DNA of 64,000 nt from Halarcobacter sp. (GCA_963676565.1 OY781089.1:192001-256000), one strand, 5' to 3'. Shown: positions 39,037 to 50,590, counted from the stretch's first letter. Numbers and translations are program-made. Notes: generated from the sequence alone by a model not told the origin.

Positions 39037-39795
39037 ATGGAAAACTATATAGCTATATCTAAAAACTCAAAGGAGATTTTAAACTCTGCACATCTATTGC
39101 AAAGTGTAGAAGTTAATGCTTTAATCTCAGGTGAAGCAGGTGTTGGTAAAAAATCTCTTGCAAAGTATATATTACCAAAAGCCCCGCTATTTAAAGCAAA
39201 AAATCTGCAACAAGATATTGCTGATAATATTATCAATCTACAAAACTGTTCAATAATTATTGATAAAATTGAAAATATTACAAATATTGATTTACTAATT
39301 AATTGGGTAAATGAAAATGGTATTAGAGTTGTTGCAACAACAATGAAAGATGATTTAAATTCAAAGTTAGAAGAGCTTTTCTCAATCACAATTGAATTAC
39401 CACCTTTAAAAGATAGAGAAGAGGATGTAAAAGCTCTAACTACAAAATTTTCAAAAGAAGCAAGTAGTACATTAGATTTGGATATAATAGTACCTTCTAG
39501 ATTAATGATAAATATCTCAAATAATGCTCATAGTTTAAGAAAATCTATATATTTTTCATACCTTTTTGAAACTATTGGTGAAGATGAAATTTTAATGTTT
39601 ATGGAAAACTATATGTTCTCAAATATGGAAGGGGAAAACTCATATAAAGATTTTCTATATTTATTAGAAGTACCTATGTTAAAAGCAGCAACAAAAAAAT
39701 ACAAATCACAAGTACAAATGGCAAAACATTTAGGACTTAATAGAATTACACTTCGAAAAAAACTAGACGGTCACAAGGAATTTTTAGATGGTTAG
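39037..39795 (+). CDS. Truncated AAA+ (NtrC-like) regulator with Fis-type HTH, no receiver domain
   Basis: Walker A GEAGVGKK, LPPLKDREEDV (bEBP-type motif), HTH MAKHLGLNRITLRKKL; no GAFTGA motif. Confidence 0.8.
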   Translation: MENYIAISKNSKEILNSAHLLQSVEVNALISGEAGVGKKSLAKYILPKAPLFKAKNLQQDIADNIINLQNCSIIIDKIENITNIDLLINWVNENGIRVVATTMKDDLNSKLEELFSITIELPPLKDREEDVKALTTKFSKEASSTLDLDIIVPSRLMINISNNAHSLRKSIYFSYLFETIGEDEILMFMENYMFSNMEGENSYKDFLYLLEVPMLKAATKKYKSQVQMAKHLGLNRITLRKKLDGHKEFLDG

Positions 39796-42319
39796 CGAAC
39801 TAAATATTGAAATTGAAGAACTTATATCTCAAGGAGCACAAGATTTTGAAATTTCAAAAATTTTTAGAAACTACTTTAAAAACTATGTAAACTCTATTGA
39901 TACTACTCTTGAAACAACAGGAGGGAAAGACTTCTTTGTTCAACACACAAAACACACTGATAAATTTTTAATAGCTTTATACAAATACATATTAAGAAAA
40001 CATTTTAAAAACTATCAACCAATGAGTACCTCAATACCTATTACCTTAATTGCATTAGGAAGTTATGGAAGGGAACAATTGTGTATCTACTCTGATGTGG
40101 ACTTAATGCTTTTATATGAAGATGTTCCAGGTTATAACTTAAGAACTATTATGGAAGATTTTATCACTTTAGCTTGGGATTGTGGCTTAAAACTTGGTTC
40201 AAGGGTACATGAACTAAAGGATATTGCAGAGGGTGTAAAAGAGGATATTACAATAAAAACCTCTATTATTGAATCAAGAATGATTTATGGATCAAAATAT
40301 CTTTGGTATGGTTATGAAAATGTACTTAAAAAGATAAAAGAAACAGACAAAAAACAATTTGTATTAGAAAAACTTGAAGAACATAAACAAAGACTTTTAA
40401 AATTCCCACTTAAAATGGAACCAAATATTAAAGATGGTTATGGGGGAATGAGAGAATCGAATATGGTATTTTGGATGGCAACAGTTATCCATGGAGTTTA
40501 TGATACAAAAGAGCTTATTGGTCAAGAGTTTACAGAAGATGAATACAAAAAATATAGAGCTGCTTTAGAATATATTTTTCAAGTAAGAAATGCTTTACAT
40601 AATATCTCAAAAAAGAAACTTGATGTTGTAAATTTTGATATCTTGCCAGAACTTAGTACAAAATTAGGTTTTAATCATACTCCACGTTTAACTAAAGAGC
40701 GTCAGTGTATGTCTAAACTTACTGAATCTTTACATAGGATACATCATTTTTCATGCACAATGGTTAAAAAATTTACAAGACAAGTTTTATTTGAAAAAGA
40801 GAATATATCTAAACTCAAAAAATATAGATTTAAAAAAAATCTTTATATTATTGATGATAAATTATATTGTTCTTTTTCAAATAAACCAAAAACTTTAAAT
40901 GCCTTAATTAAAGAATTTATTGAACTTCCTGATACAATTAAAGCTTTTGATAGGTCATATCTTTATTATGTAAGTAGAACTAAAATTCCAAGTAAACAAA
41001 CTAAAGAGTTAAAAAAGAATATAAAAACTTTATTATATAAACCAAATTTGTATCCACTTATAAAGATGATTTATAATGGTAGACTTTTTCAAGCAATTTT
41101 ACCAATAGGTAAAAAAATTGTAAATCAACCTCAATTTGATGGCTATCATCAACACCCTGTTGATATCCACTCAATAAAAACACTTAAAAAATTAGAAGAG
41201 ATAAAAGACCCTTATGTTCGAGAAGTTTATGACTCAATGGATGAAAAAGATAGAGCTTTAGTTAGACTTGTTGCCTTACTACATGATGTTGGAAAAGGAA
41301 GAGTAGTAGACCATCATATTGCAGGAGAAAAACTATTTAAAAATATGACTAAAGCATTTGAATTCGACCCAATCCATATTCAAAGGGGTGCAGTACTAGT
41401 AAGATACCATAATATGATGAGTAAGTTTGCAACTAGCAAAGATATTTACTCTGAAAAAGTGATTCTAGCCTTTACTGCATTATTAGAAGATGAACTAACT
41501 CTAAAAATGCTTTATGTTGTTACATATGCAGATATTTCTGCTGTTGGTGATAGTGTATATAAAAGTGCAACCTCTTCACTTTTAAGACAATTATATCTTC
41601 AATCTTTACCTGCATTTGAAAATAAAAATCTATTAAATGAGAATGTAAGAAGACACAAAAAAGAAGAAACAATTAAAAAATTAAAAAGATATAAAGAGTT
41701 GTCTCAAATTAAGAAGAAAAAACTTATGTATATTTCTTCAAATCAAATTTTCTTGCAACTTAGAGCAAGTGAAATCATGGATATTGCCCTTGATGCATAT
41801 GAGGTTAAAGATTTTAAATATGAGATAGATAATACAAAAAATCTAAGAATAAAAATTATTAGAGCAATACCTCTAAACTTGGGTTATATGCTTGGTAAAT
41901 TAGAGTTTTTAAATATCTCAACATTAAATATTTTCAAACTTTATGACGATAAAAAATACTTTGAAATTAGATTTGATGAAGGAGTTGAGGAAGGGGATTT
42001 AATCTATATAGATAGTGTTATAAAAGATTCATTTGATATGAGTAAAAAAACTAAACTTCTTTCACCTGAAATAAAAAAAGAAAATATCACAATTGATTGT
42101 AATCACTCAGCATATCTTGCTTCTATGCACGTAGTTGCTAAAGATCAAAAAGGTCTTTTTGCTTATATTGCAAAGGTATTTGATGATTTTGAAGTTGAAA
42201 TTGAAAGTGCAAAATTGAGCTCTATGAAAAAAGTGGCAAATGATTTATTCCTTATTGAAAAAGATGGAAACTTTTGTGCAAATCAAGATGAAATCATTGA
42301 ATCCCTTTGTAGCAAATAA
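39788..42319 (+). CDS. glnD: PII uridylyltransferase / uridylyl-removing enzyme
   Basis: NTase ALGSYGREQL..YSDVDL, EPNIKDGYGGMR, HD domain (YHQHPVDIH, LHDVGKG), C-terminal ACT (DQKGLFAYIAKVF); adjacent to PII genes. Confidence 0.92.
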   Translation: MVSELNIEIEELISQGAQDFEISKIFRNYFKNYVNSIDTTLETTGGKDFFVQHTKHTDKFLIALYKYILRKHFKNYQPMSTSIPITLIALGSYGREQLCIYSDVDLMLLYEDVPGYNLRTIMEDFITLAWDCGLKLGSRVHELKDIAEGVKEDITIKTSIIESRMIYGSKYLWYGYENVLKKIKETDKKQFVLEKLEEHKQRLLKFPLKMEPNIKDGYGGMRESNMVFWMATVIHGVYDTKELIGQEFTEDEYKKYRAALEYIFQVRNALHNISKKKLDVVNFDILPELSTKLGFNHTPRLTKERQCMSKLTESLHRIHHFSCTMVKKFTRQVLFEKENISKLKKYRFKKNLYIIDDKLYCSFSNKPKTLNALIKEFIELPDTIKAFDRSYLYYVSRTKIPSKQTKELKKNIKTLLYKPNLYPLIKMIYNGRLFQAILPIGKKIVNQPQFDGYHQHPVDIHSIKTLKKLEEIKDPYVREVYDSMDEKDRALVRLVALLHDVGKGRVVDHHIAGEKLFKNMTKAFEFDPIHIQRGAVLVRYHNMMSKFATSKDIYSEKVILAFTALLEDELTLKMLYVVTYADISAVGDSVYKSATSSLLRQLYLQSLPAFENKNLLNENVRRHKKEETIKKLKRYKELSQIKKKKLMYISSNQIFLQLRASEIMDIALDAYEVKDFKYEIDNTKNLRIKIIRAIPLNLGYMLGKLEFLNISTLNIFKLYDDKKYFEIRFDEGVEEGDLIYIDSVIKDSFDMSKKTKLLSPEIKKENITIDCNHSAYLASMHVVAKDQKGLFAYIAKVFDDFEVEIESAKLSSMKKVANDLFLIEKDGNFCANQDEIIESLCSK

Positions 42320-42426
42320 TAATCTTAAAACAACTAAGTAAATAACTTAATTATTTATTAAGACTTGTAGCATTATAATTTGATTAGAGGATATCTCTAA
42401 TATCATGATATCTTTTAAAAGGATGT

Positions 42427-42744
42427 GTGGTGAAGATGCAGCAAGCTTTTGGGGCAAAAGTTACTACTTTAAAGTTCGAAAATAAATTCGCAACATATGC
42501 TGTATTTTTAAAAAAAACAGCAAATAGAGATCAAAGAATATCACTATTTAACAATTTAAAAAGATTAGTATCAACTGAAATATGGACAAATGAAAACATT
42601 GATTTTATTATTATAGAATTAACTCTGAATAAGAAAAAGTATGTTCAAAATAATAATCTAATCTCATACATTGGTGAAGTACAAATTGATTTAAAAAAAT
42701 TAAATAGTCTAATGACAGGAGATTTCTCTTTAGCTGAAATGTAA
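42427..42744 (+). CDS. Hypothetical protein, first gene of an uncharacterised operon
   Basis: 105-aa ORF with AAGGA RBS, TATAAT at 42374-42379, and 12 bp to the next gene. Confidence 0.55.
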   Translation: MVKMQQAFGAKVTTLKFENKFATYAVFLKKTANRDQRISLFNNLKRLVSTEIWTNENIDFIIIELTLNKKKYVQNNNLISYIGEVQIDLKKLNSLMTGDFSLAEM

Positions 42745-42756
42745 AAAGGATATACA

Positions 42757-43293
42757 ATGAGCGTAGGACAAGAACTCTTAGATGTACCATTACCACAGAT
42801 GGTAGCCGACTTAGCCATGGGTGTAGCTACAGCACAAGAAGCTTTAGATAACAATTCACTACAAACAACATTAGAACTCGCAAAACCAGAAAATGCTATT
42901 AGTTTCGTACCAAAAATTGTAGGAACAATTAATCCTGATACAGGGGAATCAAACATAACACAAGTTGAGGCAAAGGATATTCCACTTATTGCATTTATAA
43001 GACCTACTTGGTATCAGTTTTCTGAAACATCAATTGAAGTATCTATGGATATTAAAACTTCAATGCAAAGGGAAACAAATGTAAAAGTTGGGTTTAAAGC
43101 AAAAGCTGGATGGGGTCCATTTTCTGCTTCCATAAAAACAGATGTTGAACATAATAGAAAATTTGGTAAAGAAGTACATGGAACAAGTAAACTTACTGTA
43201 AAAATGGTTCCTGTACCTCCACCACCTTTATTATTGCCAGAGGTTGATATTCAGGTTTTACAACCAGCTAATCCAACACCACCTGTTAATTAA
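42757..43293 (+). CDS. DUF2589-like protein (helix plus long beta-hairpin)
   Basis: N-terminal helix LAMGVATAQEALDNNS; PTWYQFSETSIEVSMDI; alternating hairpin NVKVGFKAKAGWGPFSASIKTD; SKLTVKMVPVPPP. Family recalled by eye. Confidence 0.6.
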   Translation: MSVGQELLDVPLPQMVADLAMGVATAQEALDNNSLQTTLELAKPENAISFVPKIVGTINPDTGESNITQVEAKDIPLIAFIRPTWYQFSETSIEVSMDIKTSMQRETNVKVGFKAKAGWGPFSASIKTDVEHNRKFGKEVHGTSKLTVKMVPVPPPPLLLPEVDIQVLQPANPTPPVN

Positions 43294-43303
43294 TAGTTTT
43301 ATT

Positions 43304-43331
43304 ATTCATAGTAGAATTTTCTACTATGAAT
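43304..43331. terminator. Perfect intergenic hairpin inside the operon (attenuator or stability stem)
   Basis: ATTCATAGTAGAA-tt-TTCTACTATGAAT, 13-bp arms. Confidence 0.7.
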
Positions 43332-43364
43332 TAAAACCTTAACCATAGATATAAGGAATATATC

Positions 43365-43841
43365 ATGCCTATACCAAAAGAATATAAAGAGATATCAGCA
43401 AGTTTATCTGATTTCGTGGAGGAGATGTCTTTAGCTATTGCTCAATCTAAAAAAAATTTAGATGAAAGCTCATTGAATACCTTAAAAGAATTAGCAAAAA
43501 CAGATATAGAAATCCCTATCTTAAAACAAGAAGTAACTCAAAATGGAGTAAGGGACAAAATTTCATATGTGAAAGTTTCTGCTTTATCTTTAGGAATGAA
43601 ACCAACTTTTTATGAATTTAGTGAAACTAAAATAGAAGTTTCTATGGATTTAAGCGTTGCAGAAGAAGTAACTTCAACCACAAATACTAAAAAGAAAAAA
43701 CTGTTTGTTAATACTAAAGATATAAAAAATGAAAGGCGATTCGAATCTAATATGAATGCTTTTAGTAAACTATCTATAACAATGGTACCCGTACCTGCAC
43801 CTAATAATATACCTGGGATAATTCAAGATTATGAAAGCTAA
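43365..43841 (+). CDS. DUF2589-like protein, paralog of 42757-43293
   Basis: MSLAIAQSKKNLDESSL, PTFYEFSETKIEVSMDL and SKLSITMVPVPAP align directly with the upstream gene. Confidence 0.6.
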   Translation: MPIPKEYKEISASLSDFVEEMSLAIAQSKKNLDESSLNTLKELAKTDIEIPILKQEVTQNGVRDKISYVKVSALSLGMKPTFYEFSETKIEVSMDLSVAEEVTSTTNTKKKKLFVNTKDIKNERRFESNMNAFSKLSITMVPVPAPNNIPGIIQDYES

Positions 43842-44070
43842 TGATTTCTTTGGAATAGTTTCAGATTCTTTATTAGATGTCTACAAGATTAACAAAAAGA
43901 TTGAAAAGAATAATCTTTTAATAAAAGATATTGAACTAGAGATGAGTTTCTCTCCTGATTCTGAACTTAAGAATATATCTTTAGCTAAAGTGGAAAATAA
44001 ATTTATGGATAGATATAAAGAGACTAGCTACTTTAATATTAATATAAAAGCATCTGTAAAAAGGAAATAA
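43831..44070 (+). CDS. Small hypothetical protein, Trypco-like helix plus two strands
   Basis: DFFGIVSDSL helix, LLIKDIELEMSF strand, FNINIKASV strand; overlaps the upstream gene. Confidence 0.5.
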   Translation: MKANDFFGIVSDSLLDVYKINKKIEKNNLLIKDIELEMSFSPDSELKNISLAKVENKFMDRYKETSYFNINIKASVKRK

Positions 44071-44071
44071 A

Positions 44072-44569
44072 ATGCCAAATTTTGAAAAAATAACAGAGAT
44101 AGAAAGAAAACTTAATACAATTGATAAAAAGCAATTGCAAAGTTTTAAACAGAGTTATAAAATTCAGGAAATAAAAGCTACAAAATTAAGTGATGAAAAT
44201 AAAACCTTGAAAATGGAAGTTAAAAATATAGAAAAGGAAAAAGTAAATCTTCAAAAACTTTTAGAAAAGCAAGAGATTCAACTAAAACAATTTGAAGAGT
44301 TAAAAAAAATCAAACCTCTATATCAAAATGATTTCAATAATTTCATAGCAGATTCAGTAAAAGCATTACAAAACAATTTAGAATCAGATGATGATAGTGA
44401 TTATGAATTTATGATTAGAGATGTACAAATTGAAGCTCTAGTTTCCACAGAAAATCGAAATGGAAAATTATCTTATGTGATTCCAACCTCTACCCAGCTA
44501 AAAGAGATTGATGGGAATAAGTTACAAAAACTGAAATACTCTTTAAGTGTAGTACCAAAAACTAGATAG
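44072..44569 (+). CDS. Hypothetical protein with N-terminal coiled coil and C-terminal Trypco-like module
   Basis: Heptad-rich first ~80 aa, then DFNNFIADSVKALQNNL, FMIRDVQIEALV, KLKYSLSVVP. Confidence 0.55.
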   Translation: MPNFEKITEIERKLNTIDKKQLQSFKQSYKIQEIKATKLSDENKTLKMEVKNIEKEKVNLQKLLEKQEIQLKQFEELKKIKPLYQNDFNNFIADSVKALQNNLESDDDSDYEFMIRDVQIEALVSTENRNGKLSYVIPTSTQLKEIDGNKLQKLKYSLSVVPKTR

Positions 44570-44618
44570 TTTTATTAAGGAGAAGACTAAAGTTAAAATC
44601 TTCTCCAAAATAATTTCA

Positions 44619-48871: not shown

Positions 48872-50386
48872 TTAGCTTTTACTACTCTTACTAAACTCTT
48901 TTATCATTGCTAATATTTCCGATTCATTTGCGGCATCTTCCCTAGTAATAAGTCCTGATTTTAAGGTTTCTAATTTGGATAATGCAGTTTCTATTCGTTC
49001 TAAAAACTCATTAGCTTCTGTTCCTTGAGTTTTTTTATCTTCTTGTTTTAAATTATCTCCTTCTGTTTTTACAATAGCTTGACCCATAACTCTTTTTTCC
49101 ATAGCAGCTATCTCTTTTTCTGTTTTACTTAATAAGGCTTCAATCTCTTTTTTTGAGTAATTCCCCTCTTCTATTTTCTCTTTTAGTTTTCGAAGAAGCT
49201 CTTGTAAAGATTCAAGTTCAGAAACTGTAAAACCAGTTTTCATTAAAGAGAAAATATCTTCAACCATAGCCCTTAACTTTTCTATATCTTCTTTTTCCTT
49301 TTTGTTAGAACTTGTGGTATTGTTTTTTTTGTTTTCATCATTATCACTAGCTTTATAATTGTCAAAAAAACTCAGAACACTATTTAATAAATCTAACATC
49401 TCTGAAGGATCTCCACCAAACTTTCTTGCACCCTCTTCAAGGTCAGAGATTTCATCTTTAAAATAATCTTTTATGCTTTCTAAAGATGCAAACTCTTTTT
49501 TAGGATTTTTCTCATGATTTCCAGGAACTATATTTCCATTTTCATCTTCCATAAGTCCACTTCCAAAAGAAGACCAAAAATTAGCACTTAATTTCATATA
49601 GTCACGAACATCTAAATTTGATAAAAAGTTAACAAATTCATCTTTTAAATTTGCATCCTTTGAAAAAGCAGAATCTTCAAACCAGAAATCATTCCCTGCT
49701 TTAAAACTATTATATCTTTGTAAACCCGTGCTATATTTTTCATCTATTATAGAGCTATCATCTAAAGAGTTTTTATATGAAGTTAAAATATTTTTATAGG
49801 CATTTGCGTATGGCATTGCTTGTTCTTTACCCACCACTCCTGAAAGTGATATATGGGAATTAGACATTGTTGAGAAGAAAAAATTAAATTCTGTTGCAGT
49901 CATATTTTTAAAATATTCCCTTGTATTAACATCATCTGAACCATAATTGATATAACCATTTTCTACATCAACACTATAACTTGCTTTTAACTCCTTACCC
50001 GAAAGGTATCTATTGGCACTCATATGCATATCAAAAGAGAAAGTCAAAATTTCACTTTTTGACATAGTTGAAGTTGTTTCAAATACTGCTTTTTGCATAT
50101 TTATATCTCCAAAACTTGCAGCCATCCCAAAAGCTATAGATTTTTCAAATCCAGACTCTTCACTAATAAATTTTAAATGTGCACTTTTTTCCTCATCTGT
50201 TAAACTATTAAAATACTCAAAATCATATAGATCAACTTCTTCAGAATTTGTAGACTTATCTTTTTTATTAGATGTATCAGCTAGTGTTTGTTGAAAACTA
50301 TTTGTTTCATTTTCACTCTTAACAACTTTTCTATAACTTATACTTTCATAGCTATTATATGATACGTGTGTTGATGCAACTGTCAT
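48872..50386 (-). CDS. Hypothetical protein; C-terminal domain paralogous to 51530-52705
   Basis: Long ORF, start placed at ATG 50386 after AGGAGA; VEDIFSLMKTGFTVSELESL...EKRVMG. Confidence 0.75.
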   Translation of the reverse strand: MTVASTHVSYNSYESISYRKVVKSENETNSFQQTLADTSNKKDKSTNSEEVDLYDFEYFNSLTDEEKSAHLKFISEESGFEKSIAFGMAASFGDINMQKAVFETTSTMSKSEILTFSFDMHMSANRYLSGKELKASYSVDVENGYINYGSDDVNTREYFKNMTATEFNFFFSTMSNSHISLSGVVGKEQAMPYANAYKNILTSYKNSLDDSSIIDEKYSTGLQRYNSFKAGNDFWFEDSAFSKDANLKDEFVNFLSNLDVRDYMKLSANFWSSFGSGLMEDENGNIVPGNHEKNPKKEFASLESIKDYFKDEISDLEEGARKFGGDPSEMLDLLNSVLSFFDNYKASDNDENKKNNTTSSNKKEKEDIEKLRAMVEDIFSLMKTGFTVSELESLQELLRKLKEKIEEGNYSKKEIEALLSKTEKEIAAMEKRVMGQAIVKTEGDNLKQEDKKTQGTEANEFLERIETALSKLETLKSGLITREDAANESEILAMIKEFSKSSKS

Positions 50387-50590
50387 GATTTCTCCTATAT
50401 TAATTAGCGATTTCATATTCATAATCAAACTTTTTATTTATCCATATGAAATTATAACACCGATAAAACTTTTAATCATTTTTTTTCTAACAAAAAAAAT
50501 TATATTTTTTTAAATTTTAAAAAGAACTACTAAAAAAGCGTAACTATAAGAATATAATAAAATTGAATATTTAAAAAAAAGGAAGAGATT

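Follow-up and report, generated by a model that had tools for sequence, protein, structure and literature searches.

The nearest characterised system to which the locus described here can be related is Pepco/Trypco2, for which a preprint reports a role as a defence effector and a 9-10-mer beta barrel that is assembled in advance, with amphipathic helices at its base and a C-terminal tail rich in proline and charged residues (bioRxiv 10.1101/2025.11.14.688446). The barrel is described as resistant to heat and SDS and as turning toxic once the tail is cleaved, and its gene as neighbouring a trypsin-like or caspase-like peptidase with a fused or adjacent sensor (STAND, vWA-MoxR). Pepco is a single homo-oligomerising protein, and most of the genuine Trypco2 genes that we fetched are directly adjoined by an ORF of about 350-480 aa (known by its length). 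Two further families come into consideration, namely DUF2589 (PF11655), an uncharacterised family whose members are often paralogs in tandem (canonical members occur as two nearby paralogs in each of two genomes), and the beta-pore-forming toxins. In the library searched, no paper describes the five-gene cassette presented below, DUF2589 is mentioned only in passing and DUF4332 only in an unrelated context, and PF11655, PF19631 and IPR024510 were not found; this agrees with an earlier note on this DNA, which had recognised no described system with this composition. In one annotated record of the cassette, all five genes are labelled "hypothetical protein".

The cassette lies in a window of 64,000 nt from Halarcobacter sp. 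(the whole stretch of DNA that was analysed) and consists of five plus-strand ORFs, O1 to O5, listed in Table 1. The ORFs had been noted as tightly spaced between glnD and aas, and their coordinates, spacing (O1-O2 12 nt, O2-O3 71 nt, an 11-nt overlap of O3 and O4, O4-O5 1 nt) and flanks all match this description, one flank being a GlnD-type uridylyltransferase (PF08335 5.6e-26, HD, ACT) and the other a convergent Aas-like gene with MFS, acyltransferase and AMP-binding domains. The sequence motifs quoted at that time are all present in the translations, and the statement that signal peptides and transmembrane helices are lacking is borne out, since none of O1-O5 has a transmembrane helix (the highest 19-residue Kyte-Doolittle mean is 1.17) or a signal-like N-terminus. 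The first ORF is real as well, but its start is probably not GTG 42427: as the orthologs of O1 begin with MQ.(S/P)FGAK, and AAGGA (42420-42424) is found 11 nt 5' of ATG 42436, the ATG is most likely the start codon, judged from the sequence. No significant match was obtained in Pfam, NCBIfam, PADLOC or PHROGs for any of the five proteins.

Table 1. Positions of the five ORFs and of the associated DNA and RNA elements in the window.
Feature	Position	Strand	Length or source
Upstream intergenic region	42320..42435	+	TATAAT, palindrome, AAGGA read from sequence
O1	42436..42744 (from GTG: 42427-42744)	+	102 aa from ATG; 105 aa from GTG
O2 = subunit A	42757..43293	+	178 aa
Stem-loop after O2 stop	43296..43337	+	RNAfold
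O3 = subunit B	43365..43841	+	158 aa
O4, reduced slot-4 protein	43831..44070	+	79 aa
O5	44072..44569	+	165 aa
8-bp hairpin, O5 / aas-like convergent stops	44579..44606	.	read from sequence

At least 14 phyla, haloarchaea among them, contribute to the 80 non-redundant loci in which the cassette order O1-A-B-slot4-O5 was found, and this order is fixed apart from one rearrangement in haloarchaea. Because the same gene set recurs in so many loci, the five ORFs are far beyond chance, and chance ORFs were ruled out as an explanation. Among 150 other genomes of the family to which the window organism belongs, the cassette is present in 2. Co-occurrence as an operon together with a patchy distribution, for which a neighbourhood survey had been proposed, is what we observe. 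In this genus, the cassette is a 2.3-kb stretch cleanly inserted between glnD and aas; it is horizontally transferred and self-contained.

Outside the five genes, no neighbour family recurs across the loci, and the neighbours of the cassette are ordinary metabolic genes. Examination of 95 flanking genes from 54 loci gave 2 subtilases, 1 M13 peptidase and 1 integrase, no trypsin-like or caspase-like peptidase, and no wall hydrolase, endolysin or spanin, while tblastn of O2 found no match in 50,697 phage records and one match in 72,556 plasmids, on a large non-mobilizable replicon. In PADLOC-DB 2.0.0, there was no match for O1-O4, and O5 matched only DruC (E 0.022), over its helical N-half; within the cassette, no sensor, protease or enzyme was found. 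A gas-vesicle or microcompartment shell was also considered and dropped, as no such families appeared in any scan. These data bear directly on anti-phage abortive infection, in which the cassette would form a latent Pepco-like pore that is set off in trans, either by a factor of the phage or by a protease of phage or host, with O1 serving as its guard or inhibitor. Such a role would suit the patchy distribution and the cross-phylum transfer, the distant kinship to Trypco2/Pepco as a reported defence effector, and the proline-rich tail that A and B carry behind their last strand, which resembles the tail that is cleaved in Pepco. It is difficult to reconcile, however, with the lack of any PADLOC match, with the absence of a defence-island, integrase or phage context (the single integrase and single plasmid match given above), with a cassette that contains neither sensor nor protease, and with a conservation far above that usual for defence genes. 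Including the evidence on O1 discussed further below, we regard it as quite improbable.

The core of the cassette is formed by O2 and O3, here called subunits A and B. As the earlier note had claimed, they are paralogs (BLASTP E 4e-18, 30% identity over 145 residues; hhalign probability 100%), and they are always found together and sometimes fused: A- and B-type matches are present in 83 of 83 loci, and at least 14 contigs carry A-B fusions, which comprise six distinct sequences with a length of 345 or 360 aa. The strict co-occurrence and the fusions indirectly favour an association of A with B. At E<=1e-3, A has 578 relatives, and its alignment shows a mean column identity of 65% across bacteria and archaea, with about 55% identity between Campylobacterota and haloarchaea, while at E<=1e-10 the wider A family falls into at least 451 clusters of 50% identity. 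For B, the corresponding mean column identity is 42% (alignment A3).

Subunit A is laid out as an N-terminal amphipathic helix, beta strands, an amphipathic hairpin and a C-terminal VPVPPPP tail. The hairpin (V109-W119 / F122-V130, about 22 residues with a G-P turn) follows a strict hydrophobic/polar alternation, and in 74 orthologs the hydrophobic fraction over residues 109-130 alternates at about 1.0/0.0. B ends in VPVPAP and has no amphipathic hairpin, the equivalent segment being polar and non-alternating. The N-terminal helices of O2-O5 are all amphipathic, with helical moments of 0.85-1.45. The AF2 monomer of O2 reached a pLDDT of only 50.8, which is too low for a fold search, with the lowest confidence at residues 88-152, as would be expected if this segment needs the oligomer to fold; the prediction of the O2 + O3 complex with alignments gave scores of 0.01 and 0.05 (mark 0.32), which count neither way. 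A thus resembles beta-pore-forming toxins in having an amphipathic hairpin within the region that is least confident in the monomer model, but no relationship to any solved toxin could be detected in sequence or fold and, unlike the toxins, the cassette proteins have no secretion signal and would act from within the producer. Sequence searches of the PDB with the A and slot-4 profiles, with genuine Trypco2 and with genuine DUF2589 returned nothing.

With curated Pfam cut-offs of 23 bits for PF11655 and 24.2 bits for PF19631, window O2 and O3 do not match PF11655 even at E<=1, and no window protein matches PF19631. PF11655 is matched by 6 of 25 A orthologs (best E 4.4e-5) and is reached at E<=1e-3 by 1 of 121 wider relatives of A. 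The A-family HMM detects a bona fide DUF2589 member at E 4e-5 over 130 positions in an 11-sequence database, hhalign of A against 4 canonical DUF2589 members gives E 1.1e-3 with a probability of 21%, and DUF2589 clusters account for 29 of 30 ESM-feature neighbours. Trypco2 is matched by 5 of 25 A orthologs (best E 0.024) and by 6 of 38 slot-4 orthologs (best E 0.011), for which it is the top weak Pfam match, and the alignment of the slot-4 N-domain with the Trypco2 profile covers 82 columns (E 1.6e-4). The resemblance to DUF2589 and Trypco domains, which the earlier note had pointed out, is present, to a weak to moderate degree.

DUF2589 proteins share with A and B an N-terminal G-EL..P...AQ motif and a central P..Y/F strand, and the adjacency of A and B has its likeness in the canonical DUF2589 pairs. 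The neighbours of these pairs, however, match no O1, slot-4 or O5 profile, the VPVPPP end of A and B was not seen in four canonical DUF2589 sequences, and the genome of one cassette carrier (locus L062) has no PF11655 match. With Trypco2/Pepco, the cassette proteins have in common that they are small and soluble and combine an N-terminal amphipathic helix, beta strands of which one face is hydrophobic and the other charged, and a proline-rich C-tail; in the window, this layout is seen in the helices of O2-O5, the alternating strands of A and the VPVPPPP and VPVPAP tails of A and B. The profile similarity between Trypco2/Pepco and the slot-4/O5 module is weak but spans the full domain. Unlike Pepco, the cassette has no adjacent trypsin- or caspase-like protease and no STAND or vWA-MoxR sensor, it contains three or four different paralogs in place of one protein, it adds the partners O1 and O5, and it is far more conserved and is also archaeal. 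By analogy with Pepco, we tentatively suggest, at a probability of roughly 0.4, that the cassette encodes a hetero-oligomeric, Pepco-like ring or β-barrel that acts on a membrane.

Whether the fourth and fifth proteins belong to the same fold was addressed through their families. O4, predicted to contain a helix plus about 3 strands, is a reduced form confined to the 10 rows of a marine sulfur-oxidiser clade (the window plus 8 non-redundant loci), while in 49 loci elsewhere a protein of some 165 aa fills its slot; the slot-4 profile found only 47 orthologs in a set of 5.8 billion proteins. HMM searches with O4 gave nothing significant among all the profiles and sequences tried, the A and B HMMs did not reach significance against O4 or O5, and the pairwise comparison of O4 with O5 was not significant either (E 0.12), with whole-length hhalign of O4 against O5 and against slot-4 at E about 0.01. 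O5 consists of a charged, K/E-rich N-terminal helical region (about residues 1-83), which is probably a coiled coil, and a helix/beta C-module (about 84-165), and its orthologs are present in 77 of 83 loci. The slot-4 family aligns with the O5 family at a probability of 97.6% (hhalign, E 3.4e-12), and the slot-4 N-domain aligns with the O5 C-domain of the window clade at 81.7% (E 1.1e-5, 85 columns), with the O4 family at 42.5% (E 2.6e-4, 51 columns), with A at E 5.2e-5 and with B at E 3.3e-5. The haloarchaeal slot-4 protein is related to B over its full length (97.2%, E 3.2e-11, 121 columns). The idea that O4 and the C-terminus of O5 are reduced copies of the module thus receives moderate profile support by way of the slot-4 family, and the slot-4 protein (here O4) and the O5 C-domain are more distant relatives of A and B. 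One slot-4 protein bears the automatic UniRef label "DUF2993", which our own Pfam scan did not reproduce.

In other lineages, O5 carries additional domains, i.e., PASTA in 22 of 68 proteins, HHH_5 in 20 and DUF4332 in 12, none of which is found in window O5, and a BsuPI proteinase-inhibitor domain in two proteins, both from Natronomonas. Longer relatives contain an OmpA-like domain in 18 of 22 cases, inserted at the position of the A hairpin, and the N-termini of these relatives resemble A and are unlike signal peptides. The domains raise the question of a holin-like or secretion-type device that would pass signal-less, wall-directed partner domains across the cytoplasmic membrane. The pairing of A with a hairpin and B without one would fit such a device, as would the PASTA domains of O5 and the signal-less relatives with a peptidoglycan-binding, OmpA-like domain at the site of the hairpin, whereas the flanking genes include no wall hydrolase, endolysin or spanin, neither the phage records nor PHROGs provide a phage link, and the window cassette lacks any wall-binding domain. 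Haloarchaea are not known to have peptidoglycan, so the PASTA domains of haloarchaeal members argue against a simple wall-binding reading, and we find a holin-like role very doubtful.

The same domains, taken together with conservation and neighbourhood, are relevant to a cytoplasmic assembly (scaffold, cage, ring or filament) whose role would be of a housekeeping kind, such as ordering the nucleoid or the envelope's inner face, and in which no pore is formed and the amphipathic strands pack inside the oligomer. Structural proteins that self-assemble typically show a conservation as extreme as that of A (65% across two domains of life), none of the five soluble proteins has a transmembrane helix or signal peptide, the neighbours are metabolic, the cassette has no trigger, sensor or enzyme, the helix-hairpin-helix of 20 O5 proteins is typically DNA-binding and is accompanied by a coiled coil, and the stem-loop after A suggests one major building block. 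On the other hand, as the distribution is very patchy and the insertion clean and recent, the cassette is dispensable; moreover, the nearest characterised relative is a membrane pore, and the OmpA-like and PASTA fusions of the relatives indicate the envelope. We consider a purely cytoplasmic assembly unlikely.

O1 is the only window protein with a confident model (AF2 pLDDT 81.3), which predicts a ferredoxin-like beta-alpha-beta-beta-alpha-beta fold; the N-terminal FGA peptide is conserved but poorly modelled. Its orthologs occur in 80 of 83 loci, with a mean column identity of 27% (alignment A4) in which A7 and G80 are nearly invariant. The best VIA structural matches are subtilase propeptide/I9 domains (8gko_A, Z 9.0, rmsd 3.0, 70 aligned; 3whi_B, Z 8.9, rmsd 2.4, 64 aligned; 1v5i_B, Z 8.7, rmsd 3.9, 72 aligned), at a sequence identity of only 11-17%, while unrelated ferredoxin-like domains (ACT, RAM, ribosomal S6) reach Z 6-7.7, and Foldseek against the PDB gave no match at E<=0.001 (best E 0.02). 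For the abortive-infection reading, these propeptide/inhibitor matches and the BsuPI domain in the Natronomonas O5 proteins speak in favour; however, the ferredoxin-like fold is very common, a Z of 9 is middling by the tool's own note, and BsuPI is confined to 2 of 68 O5 proteins. Of the 95 flanking genes, only 2 are subtilases.

Returning to the Pepco-like ring acting on a membrane, the cassette would consist of small soluble structural proteins only, most of them diverged copies of one module in which an N-terminal amphipathic helix is followed by beta strands and a proline-rich tail. By analogy with Pepco/Trypco2, A and B would co-assemble into a ring via their helices and strands, and the hairpin of A would join a beta barrel able to enter the cytoplasmic membrane from its inner side. 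An excess of A is probable in view of the stem-loop behind its gene, which has a 12-bp perfect inner stem (43304-43315/43320-43331) and a 6-bp outer stem (RNAfold, -17.4 kcal/mol, z -4.6 vs shuffles); strong hairpins, unrelated in sequence, stand behind gene A in 19 of the 34 loci whose A-B gap is 40 nt or more. O4 and the module of O5 may dock onto it as minor subunits or as a cap, O5 may dimerise or tether through its helical N-half, and O1 could be an assembly chaperone or could hold the complex latent. In the earlier note, the coiled coil of O5 was a putative adaptor and O1 a putative accessory. As output, the membrane would be permeabilised in a regulated way or material would pass through it, perhaps for defence, access to the envelope or a response to stress.

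This reading draws on the conservation of the cassette, the paralogy and fusions of A and B, the profile links within the module and to DUF2589 and Trypco2, the hairpin of A, the low confidence of the monomer model around this hairpin, the amphipathic helices of O2-O5, the stem-loop after A, and the envelope link given by PASTA and OmpA-like domains in relatives. Several observations speak against it: Trypco2 and DUF2589 are linked only marginally, with E values from 1e-3 to 1e-5 and probabilities of 20-70%, alternating strands also occur in ordinary soluble sheets, window O5 is without a PASTA or HhH domain, and a suicide effector would not usually be so highly conserved or lie in housekeeping surroundings. 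Since no protease lies beside the cassette, the activation logic of Pepco has no visible counterpart, and in the lineage where A and B are fused, their ratio is implied to be 1:1, which is at odds with an excess of A. A bolder proposal, rather improbable in our view, is an endogenous hetero-oligomeric beta-barrel in the cytoplasmic membrane of Bacteria and Archaea, built from three or four Pepco/DUF2589-like paralogs, assembled from inside and without a protease trigger, which would act as a gated channel or translocon, e.g., for signal-less, envelope-directed domains or other cargo. If true, it would mean that beta-barrel pores are native to prokaryotic inner membranes, beyond toxins and outer membranes.

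A is among the most conserved uncharacterised proteins likely to be met, and its family is barely seen by current Pfam models and addressed by no paper in the library searched. Should the Pepco analogy hold, a helix-plus-hairpin barrel module would have given rise to a machine of several subunits that needs neither proteases nor sensors, the repertoire of prokaryotic membrane-active assemblies would be wider, and five small soluble proteins in culturable hosts, such as the carriers Rhodoferax ferrireducens, Halorubrum saccharovorum DSM 1137 and Sphaerotilus sulfidivorans D-507, would offer a tractable system. Should it fail, the cassette would still be a cross-domain, mobile structural complex worth solving.

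With respect to expression, three RNA runs contained zero reads and give no test, while one metatranscriptome contained contigs of a 90-95% identical relative over 42300-43908 at a depth of 2.7-6.8, for which DNA carry-over is possible. Upstream of O1, we read a TATAAT box (42374-42379) and a palindrome, TTAGAG-GATAT-CTCTAA, with a 6-bp stem (42385-42401); a promoter scan called no plus-strand site in 42320..42435, and we infer from these elements a candidate promoter or operator. At the other end of the cassette, the terminator scan did not call the hairpin at 44579..44606, and no T run stands behind it; with its arms GGAGAAGA / TCTTCTCC and a 12-nt loop, this hairpin may be considered a candidate terminator.

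The five plus-strand genes of the cassette (O1-O5) were placed by ORF listing exactly where the earlier note had put them, between a GlnD-type gene (PF08335, HD, ACT) and a convergent MFS-acyltransferase-AMP-binding (Aas-like) gene, and all motifs quoted in that note were found in the translations. As had also been claimed, none of the five products (0/5) has a transmembrane helix or a signal-like N-terminus, and searches of O1-O5 against Pfam, NCBIfam, PADLOC and PHROGs returned no significant match. For O1, the second of the two starts listed is indicated, because the starts of its orthologs and an AAGGA box both point to that ATG. In the gap between glnD and O1 lies a palindrome, with a TATAAT box just upstream of it, that could be a terminator of glnD or an operator of the cassette. 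A further gene, whose end overlaps glnD by 8 nt, encodes a protein whose only Pfam matches, all near or below the cut-offs, are a Fis-type HTH and part of a sigma-54 interaction domain, and may represent a degenerate NtrC-like regulator coupled to glnD. An acidic Lys/Glu-rich ORF with long helical-looking stretches was also seen in the window.

Coordinates of the cassette genes and of other features, in the window unless a fetched locus is named
Feature	Position	Strand	Source
O1	42427/42436-42744	+	ORF listing
O2	42757-43293	+	ORF listing
O3	43365-43841	+	ORF listing
O4	43831-44070	+	ORF listing
O5	44072-44569	+	ORF listing
O1 residues 1-17	42436-42486		
TATAAT box	42374-42379		
Palindrome TTAGAG-GATAT-CTCTAA	42385-42401		
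Gene of 252-aa sigma-54 interaction/HTH protein	39037-39795	+	
518-aa Lys/Glu-rich ORF	48872-50428	-	
O5 of uncultured Natronomonas, L030	1483-3120		
O5 of uncultured Natronomonas, L038	1108-3111		
272-aa neighbour in DUF2589 locus L113	4925-5743	-	

Relatives of O2 (the A-type subunit; O3 is its paralog, B) number 578 at E<=1e-3 in a 90%-clustered protein collection, and identity to O2 is still 54-59% in haloarchaea, Chloroflexota, Cyanobacteriota and others; the alignment of A has a mean column identity of 65%, with the N-terminal, IEV.MDIKT and PVPPPP motifs invariant. A pattern scan with one genome per species gave 137 stretches encoding an O2 relative, from which 80 loci were taken, and iterated profile searches covered 5,944 ORFs of 83 loci (including 3 duplicates). 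Both A- and B-type proteins were matched in 83/83 loci, O1 in 80/83 and O5 in 77/83, and the order O1-A-B-slot 4-O5 recurs across the loci, which bears out the proposed operon; in most haloarchaea, the order is changed to A-B-slot 4-O5-O1. Slot 4, the position of O4 in the window, is filled by a ~165-aa family in 49 loci, in haloarchaea by a 130-aa protein, and by the short O4 (79-89 aa) in only 8 non-redundant loci plus the window. No other family was found to recur beside the cassette among the loci, and the flanks scanned (95 genes from 54 loci, out of 136 selected, leaving out near-duplicate genera, invalid coordinates and a few long ORFs) are heterogeneous housekeeping genes, including two subtilases, one M13 peptidase and one integrase, with no wall hydrolase among the 95. 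Every one of the cassette genes carries the name "hypothetical protein" in the only record with annotation, which is a Sphaerotilus replicon of 303 kb. The earlier view that this composition is undescribed agrees with the literature searched, where no paper on the cassette was found, DUF2589 is mentioned only in passing, DUF4332 appears in an unrelated context only, and the family accession numbers are absent. Four short DUF2589-related genes of A. fulgidus, AF0414-AF0417, are reported to be induced on lactate.

The paralogy of O2 and O3 was readily recovered (BLASTP E 4e-18, 30% identity; hhalign probability of A vs B 100%), and as judged by sequence A and B are certainly homologous. O4 and the O5 C-terminus, which the earlier note took for reduced copies of the same module, showed no similarity in pairwise comparisons (O4/O5, O2/O5, O3/O4), but were connected at the profile level through slot 4. 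With domain-trimmed alignments, the haloarchaeal slot-4 protein matched B (97.2%, E 3.2e-11) and A (89.5%, E 2e-6), both over 121 columns, while the slot-4 N-domain matched A (E 5.2e-5, 53 columns), B (E 3.3e-5, 59 columns) and haloarchaeal slot 4 (E 1.7e-4, 87 columns). The same N-domain was matched by the O5 C-domain of the window clade (81.7%, E 1.1e-5, 85 columns) and by the O4 family (42.5%, E 2.6e-4, 51 columns), and the entire slot-4 and O5 families were matched at 97.6% (E 3.4e-12). HMMs built on A and B alone hit haloarchaeal slot 4 (down to 1.9e-13, limited to the N-terminal ~35 residues) and neither O4 nor O5; the O4 HMM gave no significant match, its best non-self matches all being cassette proteins. 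Slot 4 is thus probably related to A/B through the haloarchaeal bridge, the O5 C-domain is likely related to slot 4, and O4 is a probable relative of slot 4 from its position and profile.

As for the suggested resemblance to DUF2589 (PF11655), it holds for 6/25 A orthologs (best E 4.4e-5) but not for the window proteins themselves, which have no match. In the ESM Atlas, the neighbours of O2 are DUF2589 clusters in 29/30 cases (score 0.96), and the A HMM matched one bona fide DUF2589 protein with E 4e-5 over 130 positions. An exhaustive search gave 1,016 relatives of A at E<=1e-3 (451 at <=1e-10, 16 at <=1e-30), yet only 1/121 of the more distant ones reached PF11655 at E<=1e-3; because of these partial matches, A and B appear to form part of a large family that is sister to DUF2589 and has motifs of its own. 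In the canonical DUF2589 loci L113 and L114, the genes likewise lie in small cassettes, each with a pair of paralogs beside unassigned neighbours; one such neighbour (in L113) has a similar starting helix followed by an EVEIDLKF-type strand. The likeness to Trypco is weak in Pfam, where Trypco2 is the top weak match of slot-4 proteins (6/38), and weak at the profile level as well, where the slot-4 N-domain matches a set of 13 genuine Trypco2 proteins with E 1.6e-4 (82 columns). In a control with equally shallow alignments, E was only 0.008-0.019 between genuine DUF2589 and genuine Trypco2. Sequence search returned no solved structure for A, slot 4, Trypco2 or DUF2589.

In the literature, Trypco1/2 were defined by their place beside trypsin-like peptidases of conflict systems (eLife 2020;9:e52696), and, recently renamed Pepco, are reported to form heat- and SDS-stable 9-10-mer beta-barrels with basal amphipathic helices, where cleavage of a Pro/charge-rich tail activates the pore (bioRxiv 10.1101/2025.11.14.688446). 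Unlike Trypco/Pepco, the cassette is flanked by no trypsin-like or caspase-like peptidase (0/95 genes, 54 loci), and we rate it as a relative of the Pepco/DUF2589 module that has several paralogs and no protease. It is real, highly conserved, experimentally tractable and widespread in two domains of life, while its mechanism rests on distant analogy.

The observations on the cassette fit an assembly of several subunits, built of related helix-plus-strand modules, in which A would be the main subunit and B an obligate partner. The most likely form, with a probability of roughly 40%, would be a ring or beta-barrel acting on the cytoplasmic membrane, by analogy with Pepco; a structural assembly that forms no pore is the main rival, and we consider it rather unlikely. 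The N-terminal helices of O2-O5 are amphipathic, and in 74 orthologs, A residues 109-119 and 122-130 alternate strictly between hydrophobic and polar/charged around a G-P turn, whereas the B segment at this position is polar and non-alternating; in the O2 model the hairpin is the least confident part. Behind the O2 stop lies an 18-bp stem-loop (z -4.6, although against mononucleotide shuffles), and gene A is followed by strong hairpins, unrelated in sequence, in 19/34 loci with an A-B gap of >=40 nt (the gap is <40 nt in 40/74 loci with clean, non-overlapping A,B pairs; in the rest of the 80 non-redundant loci these are cut by contig ends or overlapping ORF calls), which fits A being made in excess. 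Natural single-chain fusions of A and B (345 or 360 aa) comprise six different sequences from at least 14 contigs, among 15 of the 20 cluster members. One half aligns to O2 (E 5e-51) and the other to O3 (E 3e-20), a Rosetta-stone hint at joint action of A and B. In these metagenomic proteins (P0317, P0346-P0349, P0351), the two domains are joined by a Pro-rich linker.

An envelope-crossing role is one candidate purpose, as wall-binding domains occur in relatives: an OmpA-like domain (PF00691) was found in 18/22 longer relatives of A, located where A carries its hairpin in the three proteins inspected, with an A-like (hhalign 97.2%), not signal-like, N-terminal part and a C-terminal stretch resembling, by eye, the end of A (…F….V.G.S…….VS.PAPP). 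Proteins P0318-P0338 (~600 aa), which lack a signal-like N-terminus, have roughly 450 aa of OmpA-like, peptidoglycan-binding sequence inserted into the A-like domain at the hairpin position. The N-terminal part of O5 is charged and helical, probably forming a coiled coil, and is followed by the module; O5 proteins of other lineages carry PASTA (22/68), HHH_5 (20/68) or DUF4332 (12/68), with BsuPI in two Natronomonas MAGs. Against this role, such wall-binding domains are absent from the window cassette, whose O5 is without PASTA, HHH_5, DUF4332 or BsuPI, and PASTA is present in haloarchaea, organisms not known to have peptidoglycan. The Natronomonas O5 proteins (L030, L038) are arranged as coiled coil-PASTA-BsuPI-DUF4332/HhH, and their BsuPI (intracellular proteinase inhibitor) match, at E 1e-24 to 1e-26, is the sole protease-related domain seen in any cassette member. 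The O1 model is a confident ferredoxin-like domain (pLDDT 81.3), with subtilase propeptide/I9 domains as best VIA matches (Z 9.0, 8.9, 8.7) and many ferredoxin-like folds at Z 6-7.7; Foldseek gave no match at E<=0.001. Its first 17 residues are the most conserved stretch (FGA motif, A7 nearly invariant) yet poorly modelled (pLDDT 50-72), and may serve to dock a partner subunit.

Defence is the other candidate purpose, to which the kinship with Trypco/Pepco lends itself, as does the patchy distribution, the A profile matching in 2/150 other genomes of the family and 2/21 of the genus, while the extreme conservation, the lack of a sensor, protease or island context and the absent PADLOC match speak against it. 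The source genome has a single copy, and the insertion site is identical in both other carriers. In 4/5 congeners without the cassette, glnD and aas are convergent with ends ~30-50 bp apart (the search for aas in the 5.5 kb fetched from the fifth found none); therefore, the cassette, 2.3 kb in length, was inserted cleanly between them. An ML tree built on 75 A proteins groups the window and a Halarcobacter MAG (95% identical) with Thiomicrorhabdus, Thiosulfatimonas, Thiotrichales and Sulfurimonadaceae in a clade of 10 rows (support 100/99), whose loci are precisely those that have the short O4. For Pseudomonadota, this tree requires at least 4 label changes, by themselves no proof of transfer; since they combine with the patchiness and the clean insertion, we read the spread as horizontal. 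No match of O2 to phage records was found. Of the words sampled from the cassette, 86-100% are present in six public runs (X2-X7), which come from four studies, and four of the six share one organism label; as the other libraries of that organism are poly-A/oligo-dT RNA-seq, this suggests that a eukaryotic host harbours the source bacterium or a close relative.
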